Below, in pieces: positions 54,914-60,417 of a DNA stretch of 64,000 nucleotides (positions are counted from its first letter, which is position 1; each line of letters starts with the position of its first letter). A program made the translations under genes and the position numbers. The DNA is taken from NCBI GenBank assembly GCA_016926955.1, contig JAFGNN010000001.1, positions 29,968 to 93,967 of the forward strand, written 5' to 3'. The notes beneath the pieces are model-generated. The model worked only from the letters and a program-made list of their open reading frames with translations, was not told the origin of the DNA and did no database searches. This stretch comes from Spirochaetales bacterium (GTDB taxonomy: Bacteria > Spirochaetota > Spirochaetia > Treponematales > UBA12059).

Positions 54914-55489
54914 ATGGACTCACGCGCATCGGTCTTCGACATCGAAGCCGCAGCGGAACGCCTGCGCGGCAAGCCGGGCGCCCTGCTCGGCCTCCTCGAG
55001 GAAATCCAGGACGCAGATCCTGCCCGCTACCTCTCCGAGGAGAACCTCAGGCGAGCCGCGGCGGCGCTCGCCGTTCCCGCCTCGCAGGTCTGGTCGGTGG
55101 CCACCTTCTACGGCTTCTTCAACCTTCAGCCCCAGGGCCGGCACACCATCACGGTCTGCCGCGGCACCGCCTGCCATACGCGCGGCTCGCTGGGCCTGCT
55201 CAAGGACGCGGCCGCCCTGCTCGGCTGCGAGGGCTACGATCCCGATTCCGAGGGCGCCTTCACCACGGCGGACCGCGAGTACACCATCCGCACCGTGGCC
55301 TGTTTCGGGCAGTGCGCGCTCGCGCCGGTGGTCATGATCGACGACGAGATCTACTCGCGCATGACGCCGGGGCGGCTCGTCGCCGTCCTTTCCGGAGCGA
55401 AGAAGCGTGGAGCGAAAAAAGCCGCGCACGTGCCGCGGCGGCGCTACGAGGGCGAGGCCGCGCCGAGCGTGGAAGGAGCCGTGCGATGA
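54914..55489 (+). CDS. [FeFe]-hydrogenase gamma subunit (HydC/NuoE-like, 2Fe-2S)
   Basis: VATFY, VCRGTACH, VACFGQCALAP. Confidence 0.92.
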   Translation: MDSRASVFDIEAAAERLRGKPGALLGLLEEIQDADPARYLSEENLRRAAAALAVPASQVWSVATFYGFFNLQPQGRHTITVCRGTACHTRGSLGLLKDAAALLGCEGYDPDSEGAFTTADREYTIRTVACFGQCALAPVVMIDDEIYSRMTPGRLVAVLSGAKKRGAKKAAHVPRRRYEGEAAPSVEGAVR

Positions 55490-58647: not shown

Positions 58648-60417
58648 ATGAGCGACACCATCACCCTTTCCGTGGACGGCCGGCCGGTAACCGTCAAGGC
58701 CGGTTCGACGATACTGGACGCCTGCGCCGCCTCCGGCGTGAAGGTCCCGACCCTCTGCCACCTGCCCGATGTCTGCTCCAACGCCTCGTGCGGCGTCTGC
58801 GCCGTCGAGGTGGAAGGCGCCCGCGGCCTCGTGCGCTCCTGCGTTCAGCAGGCCCGCGAGGGCATGAAGGTGACGACGGCATCGGCGCGCGTCCTCGAGT
58901 CGCGCCGCACCGTCGTCGAGCTCCTGCTCGCGAGCCATCCCGAGGACTGCCTTTCCTGCCTCCGGCAGGAAAGCTGCGAGCTTCGGGAGCTAGCCGAACT
59001 CGTCGGCGTCCGGAAGCGCGCCTTTCCGCCGACCCGGGCGCCGAGGAAGCTCGACGCGATCTCCGCGGCCATAGTCCGCGACAACGACAAGTGCATACTC
59101 TGCGGCCGCTGCATCGAGGTCTGCCGCGAAGTGCAGGGCGTCTCCGCCATCGACTACGCGGGCCGCAGCCAAAATAGCCGCGTCGCCGTTTTCGGCGACC
59201 GGAGCCTCGCTGACTCGGTGTGCGTGTCCTGCGGGCAATGCACCGTGGTCTGCCCGACAGGCGCGCTGACCGAGCGCGACGAGACGGACGAGGTGCTCGC
59301 CCTGCTCCGCGACCCGGACAAGGTCGTGGTAGTCCAGACGGCCCCCGCCATCCGGGCCAGCCTCGGCGAGGCGCTCGGCATGGACCCGGGCGCCCTCGTC
59401 ACCGGCAGGATGGCCGCGGCCCTGCGCCGCCTCGGCTTCGCGCGCGTCTTCGACACCCAGTTCGCCGCGGACCTGACCATCATGGAGGAAGGCAACGAGC
59501 TTCTGGCCCGCATGGCCGGGAAAGCGAAGGGCAAGCTTCCCATGCTGACCTCCTGCTCGCCCGGCTGGATCAGCTTCATCGAGACCTTCTATCCGGAGCT
59601 CTTGCCGCACGTCTCGAGCTGCAAGAGCCCCCAGCAGATGTTCGGCGCCATCGCCAAGTCGTGGTGGGCGGAAAAGGAAGGCATAGCCCCGGAAAAACTC
59701 GTCGTCGTGTCGATCATGCCCTGCACCGCAAAGAAGGCCGAGGCCAAGCGCCCCGAAATGCGAGACGCCTGGCTGTGGTGGAAGGGAAAGGGTCGGGCGT
59801 CCGAGCCCTACCAGGACGTCGACTATGCCCTGACGACCCGCGAGCTCGCGCGCATGATACGCCGCGTCGGCCTCGACTTCGGGCGGCTGCCCGAAGAGTC
59901 CTTCGACGACCCGCTCGGCGCCTCGACCGGGGCGGCGACCATCTTCGCGGCTACGGGCGGCGTCATGGAAGCCGCGGTGCGCACCGCCTACGAACTCGTC
60001 ACCGGCGAGGCCTTGCCGGGCATCGAGCTCAAGGCCGTGCGCGGCTTCGAGGGTGTCAAGAGCGCCACGCTCGCGCTGGCCGGCAAGGAGCTCACCGTCG
60101 GCGTCGCGCACACCCTCAAGAACGCGCGCGCCGTGCTCGACGGCATCGCCGCCGGAACGAGCCCCTACGCGTTCGTCGAGATCATGACCTGTCCCGGCGG
60201 CTGCGTCGGCGGAGGCGGACAGCCGGTCCTGCCCGACTGGGAGAAGCGCAGGCTGCGCACCGAGGCCATCTACCACGAGGACCGGAAGCTGCAGTTCCGG
60301 AAGTCGCACCAGAACCCCGCGGTCGCGACGCTTTACAAGGAATTCCTCGGCCAGCCCCTCGGCCACCTGAGCCACGAACTCCTGCACACCGAGTACAAGC
60401 GGAAGGAAGTCCGCTAA
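58648..60417 (+). CDS. hydA: Group A [FeFe]-hydrogenase catalytic subunit (M3 type)
   Basis: 2Fe-2S, His-ligated 4Fe-4S and 2x4Fe-4S motifs; H-cluster motifs TSCSPGW, MPCTAKKAE, EIMTCPGGCVGGGGQP. Confidence 0.95.
   Translation: MSDTITLSVDGRPVTVKAGSTILDACAASGVKVPTLCHLPDVCSNASCGVCAVEVEGARGLVRSCVQQAREGMKVTTASARVLESRRTVVELLLASHPEDCLSCLRQESCELRELAELVGVRKRAFPPTRAPRKLDAISAAIVRDNDKCILCGRCIEVCREVQGVSAIDYAGRSQNSRVAVFGDRSLADSVCVSCGQCTVVCPTGALTERDETDEVLALLRDPDKVVVVQTAPAIRASLGEALGMDPGALVTGRMAAALRRLGFARVFDTQFAADLTIMEEGNELLARMAGKAKGKLPMLTSCSPGWISFIETFYPELLPHVSSCKSPQQMFGAIAKSWWAEKEGIAPEKLVVVSIMPCTAKKAEAKRPEMRDAWLWWKGKGRASEPYQDVDYALTTRELARMIRRVGLDFGRLPEESFDDPLGASTGAATIFAATGGVMEAAVRTAYELVTGEALPGIELKAVRGFEGVKSATLALAGKELTVGVAHTLKNARAVLDGIAAGTSPYAFVEIMTCPGGCVGGGGQPVLPDWEKRRLRTEAIYHEDRKLQFRKSHQNPAVATLYKEFLGQPLGHLSHELLHTEYKRKEVR

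Follow-up and report, generated by a model that had tools for sequence, protein, structure and literature searches.

A hydCBA operon of a Spirochaetales bacterium encoding a trimeric [FeFe]-hydrogenase whose HydB ends in a GltD-type FAD/NAD(P)H module

The stretch of DNA analysed here (the window) comprises 64,000 nucleotides from a Spirochaetales bacterium (assembly GCA_016926955.1, contig JAFGNN010000001.1, positions 29,968 to 93,967 of the forward strand). On its + strand, between positions 54914 and 60417 and in DNA of about 70% G+C, lie three co-directional genes, hydC, hydB and hydA, that form a compact operon for a trimeric [FeFe]-hydrogenase (Table 1). The start codon of hydB, an ATG, overlaps the stop codon of hydC, and an in-frame ATG at 54860 offers an alternative start for hydC. 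The core of the HydB subunit is followed by a module of the GltD type, with sites for flavin adenine dinucleotide (FAD) and NAD(P)H, at the position where the HydB of known HydABC enzymes carries a ferredoxin-reducing 2x[4Fe-4S] domain. In this study, we describe the domains and cluster ligands of this fused HydB, its conservation and its relatives, and we consider what the enzyme may do.

Architecture of the operon and of HydB

An earlier note on this DNA, made from the letters alone (the sequence-only reading), had located the three genes and quoted a set of HydB motifs. The genes are indeed where it placed them and every motif is present exactly once: ADEGDPGAYM (residues 226-235), TKVF (381-384), GGPSGG (427-432) and KRCEAGVC (559-566) in the core, followed in the module by GAGPAG (676-681) at the FAD site and by GGGNVA (805-810) and YRR (828-830) at the NAD(P)H site. 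Its central claim, that a GltD/NfnA-like module has replaced the 2x[4Fe-4S] domain, is confirmed by the Pfam scan, in which the NADH_4Fe-4S domain is followed by Fer4_20 (DPD_II; residues 561-649) and Pyr_redox_2 (671-960) and no Fer4-type dicluster domain was found in HydB. A canonical HydB encoded elsewhere in the same genome (contig C92) has Fer4/Fer4_21 at residues 684-734 of the scanned frame.

Table 1. Positions of the operon, its domains and motifs, and flanking features in the window
Feature	Position	Strand	Description
hydC	54914-55489	+	NuoE-like thioredoxin-fold [2Fe-2S] subunit, 191 residues; PF01257, 125 bits; Cys82, Cys87, Cys130, Cys134
hydB	55486-58638	+	1050 residues; HydB/NuoF core fused to GltD-type FAD/NAD(P)H module
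HydB N-terminal thioredoxin-like domain, 'B5' site	55558-55875	+	Residues 25-130; align with N-terminal domains of NfnB 9n5u_B and NiFe-HydB 7t2r_B
HydB FMN/NAD(H)-binding domain	56053-56562	+	PF01512; GRGGAGFPT 197-205, CNADEGDPGAYM 224-235; motifs invariant in the family
HydB NuoF [4Fe-4S] four-helix domain, 'B1' cluster	56896-57150	+	PF10589; Cys485, Cys488, Cys491, Cys531, kept in 108-109 of 109
HydB hinge, 'B2' position	57148-57183	+	His555-Cys561-Cys566
Hinge Cys468	56887-56889	+	Fourth hinge residue; all four kept in 109/109
HydB GltD-type module	57205-58608	+	Two predicted [4Fe-4S] clusters, FAD site, NAD(P)H site
His640 of the module	57403-57405	+	Aligned with a non-Cys cluster ligand
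Permuted tail of the module	58498-58608	+	
hydA	58648-60417	+	M3-type [FeFe]-hydrogenase catalytic subunit, 589 residues
HydA motif P1	59548-59568	+	TSCSPGW
HydA motif P2	59716-59742	+	MPCTAKKAE
HydA motif P3	60178-60225	+	EIMTCPGGCVGGGGQP
Candidate promoter	54732-54769	+	AT-rich intergenic DNA 5' of hydC; two overlapping sigma-70-like hexamer pairs, consensus match only
Alpha-2-macroglobulin gene	47238-52862	-	Bacterial, 1874 residues; MG2, bMG3/5/6/10 and bait-region domains
333-residue frame	53746-54747	-	Divergent from hydC; no Pfam match at E <= 1e-4

The core of HydB is that of a NuoF-type subunit, with matches to Complex1_51K (PF01512; residues 190-359, 146.7 bits) and NADH_4Fe-4S (PF10589; 471-555, 115.9 bits) and a marginal one to SLBB (PF10531; 384-432) that at 24.3 bits falls under the cut-off of 27. 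These are the Pfam counterparts of the NuoF domain binding flavin mononucleotide (FMN), the SLBB domain and the NuoF 4Fe-4S domain (IPR011538, IPR019554 and IPR019575) by which Bfu enzymes have been recognized (Schut et al., 2022; PMC9304861). The survey definition also requires in BfuB a ferredoxin-type 4Fe-4S domain (IPR017896; B3/B4), which is absent from the HydB of the window, so that the definition would exclude fused HydBs (PMC9304861).

The stretch from residue 25 to residue 572 aligns over its whole length with B subunits of bifurcating enzymes of known structure, namely NfnB 9n5u_B (E 1e-171), NiFe-HydB 7t2r_B, StnB 8oh5_B, 9bov_B, 7q4v_B, 8a6t_B and 7p5h_B, and the alignment takes in the N-terminal domain, the B1 cysteines and the Cys468/His555/Cys561/Cys566 hinge. 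The B2 site is a Zn hinge in most solved Bfu members, and the hinge histidine is present in virtually all Bfu B subunits (PMC12018979). As we read the alignment, the position of the fifth cysteine ligand of NiFe-HydB is occupied by Ser506, which fits Zn at the HydB hinge. All of the motifs described in the sequence-only reading as associated with bifurcating enzymes are thus present, but they are partly general NuoF motifs; what is truly diagnostic is the presence of the N-terminal domain together with the hinge formed by His555 and the cysteines.

The module has eight probable cluster ligands, Cys574, Cys578, Cys617, Cys621, Cys625, His640, Cys1036 and Cys1039. Its first cluster begins eight residues past the last hinge cysteine and is completed by Cys1036 and Cys1039 of the C-terminal tail, and the arm that stands in place of the ferredoxin domain has two [4Fe-4S] clusters of its own, so that it is not an arm without clusters. 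Residues 574-1041 align with 9bov_A (104-567; E 1.6e-93), StnC 8oh5_C (104-568; E 1.6e-81) and NfnA 9n5u_A, and more weakly with NfnL 5jca_L (E 3e-72); a GGGN...YRR(S/T)R..MPA stretch is common to the HydB module and the NADPH-oxidising modules of 9bov_A, StnC and NfnA. The matches to solved chains settle the fold. The tail (...ERRGSFREISIGW...RCLRCD) pairs both with the end of the Stn/Nfn-Bfu modules and with residues 16-47 of NfnL, at the N-terminus of that protein, and the HydB module is therefore the circularly permuted Stn/Nfn-Bfu form. The arginine of GIPAYRLP, equivalent to StnC R239 and NfnB R201, is conserved.

His640 aligns with the position at which the [4Fe-4S] cluster next to FAD has a ligand other than cysteine. 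The corresponding residue is Glu in NfnL, where it is a ligand of that cluster (PMC10482914), Lys170 in StnC, and Lys both in NfnA and in the partner protein of group A2 hydrogenases (see below). The glutamate that marks NfnSL enzymes at the FAD-proximal cluster is therefore replaced in HydB.

Conservation, distribution and known relatives

A search with the junction region scored 7999 candidates, 7954 of them at E <= 1e-3. From the 120 best relatives, 108 proteins of 1000-1120 residues were kept and aligned with the query (109 sequences); the 12 shorter relatives (590-988 residues), many from short contigs, were dropped. The alignment retains in 109/109 the core residues Cys33, Cys62 and Cys66 of the N-terminal domain, Cys224, Cys314, Cys433, Cys468, Cys485, Cys491, Cys531, His555, Cys561 and Cys566, and, in the module, Cys574, Cys578, Cys617, His620, Cys621, Cys625, His640, Cys1036 and Cys1039; the FMN/NADH motifs and YRR (828-830) are likewise invariant, and Cys488 is present in 108. 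Ratios of nonsynonymous to synonymous substitution (dN/dS) against the closest relative, a 96%-identical spirochaete metagenome-assembled genome (L001), are 0.115 for hydC, 0.098 for hydB and 0.16 for hydA, and all three genes are under purifying selection. The HydB fusion is neither a chance event nor an assembly artefact, because 108 of the 120 best relatives have 1000-1120 residues with the same domains and because the dN/dS of hydB is 0.10.

Scanning one genome per species gave 591 relatives. The fusion is found in all of the best 80 loci, which belong to Spirochaetota and Bacteroidota records (e.g. Paludibacter, Proteiniphilum and Treponema). hydC lies just upstream of hydB in 69 of these, the other 11 having no more than 127 bases upstream, and hydA just downstream in 73, the other seven ending no more than 425 bases past hydB; the order hydC-hydB-hydA is kept at every one of the 80 loci with enough flank. 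Within the phylum, a 221-residue junction probe gave some match at E <= 1e-20 in 194 of 401 sampled genomes and a match over the whole junction at E <= 1e-53 in 45, of which 43 are in open frames of at least 986 residues. The fused layout is conserved and widespread.

Twelve fused HydBs from the same phylum that are more distantly related have Lys (11) or His (one) at position 640 and Cys (four) or Thr (eight) at residue 506. Because of this His640/Lys split and of the differences at residue 506, at least two clades of HydB fusion can be distinguished in the alignments, with His640 as the mark of the clade of the window.

In nine Bacteroidales loci (L048, L063, L064, L066, L069, L073, L075, L076 and L077) a second hydCBA adjoins the fused one; the match of its HydB is confined to the NuoF core (residues 175-551) and includes neither terminal domain, and its HydA reads TSCSP. 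The presence of an ordinary hydCBA beside the fused one suggests a distinct job for the fused enzyme.

The layout has been in print since 2018, when the genome of Vallitalea guaymasensis L81 was described as encoding an 'enlarged beta-subunit with a GltD binding domain' (PMC6163223). In 2024, the 'sub-type I BfuB' of Hydrogenedentota was described within a BfuABC(D) complex of group A3, its B3/B4 domain replaced by DPD_II and an FAD/NAD(P) domain; Spirochaetota relatives were noted to be generally without BfuD (PMC11406978). Like the account of 2018, this description is based on sequence only. The operon of the window has the same architecture, encoded together with HydA and a NuoE-like HydC, and it too is without BfuD; it differs in that its copy belongs to the His640 subclade and to a genus without detectable HydE, HydF and HydG. 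The novelty implied by the sequence-only reading accordingly does not hold. Its statement that no enzyme of this layout has been characterized does: a search of the literature other than subscription-only papers and preprint supplements yielded no such enzyme and no biochemical study of the fused HydB layout.

Among solved enzymes, the electron-bifurcating HydABC complexes of Acetobacterium woodii (7q4v), Thermoanaerobacter kivui (8a6t) and Thermotoga maritima (7p5h) have HydA, HydC and the HydB core, including the FMN site, the B1 cluster, the hinge and the N-terminal domain, in common with the window, whereas their HydB ends in the ferredoxin-reducing 2x[4Fe-4S] domain and that of the window in a GltD-type flavin module of approximately 470 residues. 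The Stn/Nfn-Bfu transhydrogenases (S. ovata StnABC, 8oh5; 9bov; T. sibiricus NfnABC, 9n5u) share both the HydBC-like core and the same permuted GltD-type NADPH module, which starts with C...CP and ends with RCLxC. In these enzymes, however, a HydA-like subunit without an H-cluster carries the module as an insertion, B3/B4 are retained in the B subunit, ferredoxin is a substrate and the residue at the position of His640 is Lys, whereas in the window the module is on HydB and HydA has the three H-cluster motifs. The large subunit of NfnSL/NfnAB (P. furiosus NfnL, 5jca_L) is a homologue with the GltD fold, two [4Fe-4S] clusters, FAD and an NADPH site; it differs in being unpermuted, in its Glu ligand on the proximal cluster, in its bifurcating FAD and in its partner NfnS.

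A further relative came from a genus of the same taxonomic order, eight genomes of which have full-junction matches in frames of only 614-619 residues. In the one of these that was examined (G015), a two-gene unit without HydC encodes a 611-residue protein (L097:4295-6130, - strand) with NADH_4Fe-4S, Fer4_20 and Pyr_redox_2 domains and a HydA of 596 residues (L097:2511-4301, - strand) that reads TSCCP, an arrangement of the group A2 type. The 611-residue protein is 36% identical to residues 440-1050 of HydB and retains the cysteines of B1 and of the module, the His and Cys residues of the hinge, and the tail, here RCLKC; it lacks the N-terminal and FMN/NADH domains and has Lys at the position of His640. 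By this comparison the 'group A2' partner is, in effect, the fused HydB minus its FMN half, a kinship that we did not find in the related literature examined. Group A2 is still called 'functionally uncharacterised' in a 2026 preprint.

HydA, maturases and genomic surroundings

HydA has the full M3 layout, with Fer2_4, a NuoG-type 4Fe-4S region, a Fer4 dicluster, Fe_hyd_lg_C and Fe_hyd_SSU, and none of its three H-cluster motifs is disrupted. Among proteins of known structure its best match is A. woodii HydA1 (7q4v_A; E 1.4e-173), in which TSCSP is likewise present. TSCSP rather than TSCCP was considered as a mark of a non-catalytic HydA and rejected, the solved A. woodii HydA1 being active; TSCSP is found in 77 of 81 tblastn matches to HydA, and one more reads SSCSP (among these matches the window accounts for one and the C92 gene for two). 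The NCBIfam label 'NADH-dependent [FeFe] hydrogenase, group A6', which HydA receives with 821.9 bits, was set aside as non-discriminating, since the canonical HydA of C92 passes as well (806.6 bits). According to the HydDB rule, the neighbour of an A3 enzyme has a NuoF domain and that of an A2 enzyme a GltD-type domain 'but not NuoF' (PMC5037454), a wording which indicates that the HydDB authors had met the NuoF-GltD layout. Applied by hand, this published rule would place a HydB with both domains in A3 and not in A2.

The genome of the window (G000; 3.38 Mb in 94 contigs, 98% complete) contains three HydA-type genes. The second belongs to a canonical hydrogenase cluster (C92:47250-52381) that encodes HydC, a protein with a histidine-kinase-type HATPase domain, the HydB with the Fer4 dicluster tail and a HydA with TSCCP. 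The third (C22:5640-7778) encodes a protein in which a HydA-like part (Fe_hyd_lg_C, 93 bits) is joined to a methyl-accepting chemotaxis signalling domain, putatively of the H2-sensing 'group C2' type. RnfC (on C77) and three further GltD-type proteins are also encoded.

The known maturases of the H-cluster were not found in this genus. In the 98% complete draft G000, HydE, HydF and HydG scored at best 20.8 bits, not at all and 80.5 bits, respectively, where the cut-offs are 254.6, 312.15 and 325.55, and in the 99% complete draft of the same genus (G110) none exceeded its curated cut-off. All three were detected in G288, a genome of the sister genus, as well as in G092 and G056, two further genomes that carry the fusion. 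A tblastn search of G000 with the HydG of G288 gave no match, though the neighbours of hydG in G288 have orthologues in G000. In the neighbouring A2-carrying genus, HydE and HydF were not found in five closed, single-contig genomes (G015, G042, G065, G085 and G284), nor HydG in the four of them tested.

The immediate neighbours of the operon encode an alpha-2-macroglobulin (upstream), an adenylate kinase, an unassigned frame of 333 residues, a HAD hydrolase and a clostripain-like peptidase. They are unrelated to the operon and offered neither a functional partner nor an accessory subunit, and the operon is therefore self-contained, with three genes. The 333-residue frame, whose sequence includes GSFDPFQMTHIAAA, may resemble nucleotidyltransferases of the NadD type. 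Two promoter-like sites were found upstream of hydC against 0.1 expected in shuffled sequence, and a scan of the + strand 3' of hydA found no terminator.

Proposed function and alternatives

The operon may encode a soluble heterotrimeric [FeFe] HydABC that exchanges H2 with both NAD(H) and NADP(H) without ferredoxin. This reading, which agrees with the link between H2, NAD(H) at FMN and NADP(H) at FAD suggested by the sequence-only reading, fits the domains and ligands described above; we consider it the most likely one and give it an even chance. HydA would make or split H2, and HydB would bind NAD(H) at FMN, beside the B1 [4Fe-4S] cluster. The GltD-type module would sit on the hinge at the place where canonical enzymes carry the ferredoxin-reducing 2x[4Fe-4S] domain, the distal cluster of this NADPH-type module taking the B3/B4 position, and NADP(H) would be the third substrate in ferredoxin's stead, giving the overall reaction 2 H2 + NAD+ + NADP+ <-> NADH + NADPH + 2 H+. 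We infer that NADPH, not NADH, is used at the FAD site and that the use of ferredoxin has been lost; in a fermenting spirochaete the reaction would probably run towards H2, and ferredoxin would be left to Rnf and the canonical HydABC encoded in the same genome.

How the three substrates might be linked is a separate matter. In the current model of Bfu enzymes, electrons of the third substrate pass to FMN and B1, NAD+ is reduced at FMN, and the [2Fe-2S] domain of HydC swings to deliver the low-potential electrons through B3/B4 to ferredoxin (PMC12018979). Obligate coupling at the flavin/cluster site of HydBC, in which HydC would act as a swinging gate, and independent access of the two nucleotide sites to the H-cluster stand roughly level. 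In favour of coupling, the full HydBC apparatus is kept, including the N-terminal domain, the hinge and HydC. The strongest form of the proposal, a ferredoxin-free bifurcating or confurcating hydrogenase in which H2 is obligatorily coupled to NAD(H) as the high-potential and, via the module, NADP(H) as the low-potential partner, is possible though doubtful.

Several points weigh against the proposed function, some of them against its coupled form in particular. The A2-type unit has the same junction, hinge and module without an FMN domain or HydC; for A2 enzymes to work, their module would have to reach HydA with neither of the two present, and by analogy the module of the window may be wired to HydA directly, so that a kept hinge need not mean gating. 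Hyd1ABC of S. wolfei, which is without B3/B4, is non-bifurcating (cited in PMC11406978). NADPH specificity is argued solely from likeness to NADPH enzymes, and GltD-type clusters reduce ferredoxin in NfnSL, so that ferredoxin may be used here as well. Finally, with no HydE, HydF or HydG found in the genus of the window, an H-cluster in HydA is not certain.

The use of ferredoxin is at the heart of the alternative that survives best, although we regard it as unlikely: the fused FAD may be a second, NfnB-like bifurcating flavin at which the electrons of NADPH are split, ferredoxin being reduced at the [4Fe-4S] clusters of the module. A bifurcating 'FAD' centre beside 'FMN-FeS' has been postulated for the sub-type I enzymes (PMC11406978), NfnL is a clear homologue of the module at the E value given above, and the GIPAYRLP arginine, which has equivalents in StnC and NfnB, is conserved. 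However, the nearest modules of known structure are those of the Stn/Nfn-Bfu enzymes, which are permuted, and the FAD of StnC has 'lost the ability to bifurcate' (PMC10482914). The Glu ligand of NfnL is also replaced, by the invariant His640 in the clade of the window and by Lys in most of the distant fused HydBs and in the A2 partner, and inspection of the flanking genes revealed no NfnS-like gene adjoining the operon.

The missing maturases raise the improbable case that, in the genus of the window, HydA is unmatured and the complex acts as an ordinary iron-sulfur flavoprotein, such as an NADH:NADPH transhydrogenase, or is being lost. It would account for the absence of HydE, HydF and HydG from both genomes of the genus next to their presence in the sister genus and in other carriers, and for the failure of the G288 HydG to find a match among conserved neighbours. 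Both genomes are draft assemblies, however; the same operon occurs in maturase-bearing genomes, and the low dN/dS of hydA, its three intact motifs and the retention of three HydA-type genes speak for a hydrogenase in use. Equally improbable is that the FAD site serves NADH or another acceptor, such as glutamate synthase, and that NADP(H) is no substrate, for although HydDB lists A2 as 'glutamate synthase-linked (putative)' (PMC5037454) and a glutamate link was speculated on for V. guaymasensis (PMC6163223), no gltB-like large-subunit gene adjoins the operon among the flanking genes inspected, and the YRR stretch matches the NADPH-using StnC, the NfnA of Nfn-Bfu enzymes and NfnL.

Should the ferredoxin-free, obligatorily coupled form prove correct, the enzyme would be the first bifurcating member of its family with a low-potential partner other than ferredoxin or flavodoxin. 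By our own arithmetic with published potentials (Table 1 of PMC9304861), joint oxidation of NADH and NADPH would then sustain H2 up to approximately 150 Pa, as compared with approximately 3 Pa for NADH alone and approximately 0.15 bar for NADH with ferredoxin.

Enzymes of this kind have already been described twice from genomes, and the details added here are the permutation of the module, the position of the His ligand, the kinship with group A2 and the co-occurrence with a canonical HydABC. HydABC and other Bfu-type enzymes are central to H2 turnover in anoxic habitats, and the mechanism of bifurcation is still debated; a variant in which an NADPH module has taken over the site of the ferredoxin arm would be a natural experiment on that arm. 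The genus of the window adds a puzzle, as no known maturases were found, yet hydCBA is under purifying selection and the H-cluster motifs are intact. For many Spirochaetota and Bacteroidales, genome-based predictions of an 'A3, NADH + ferredoxin bifurcating' hydrogenase may misassign the flow of electrons.

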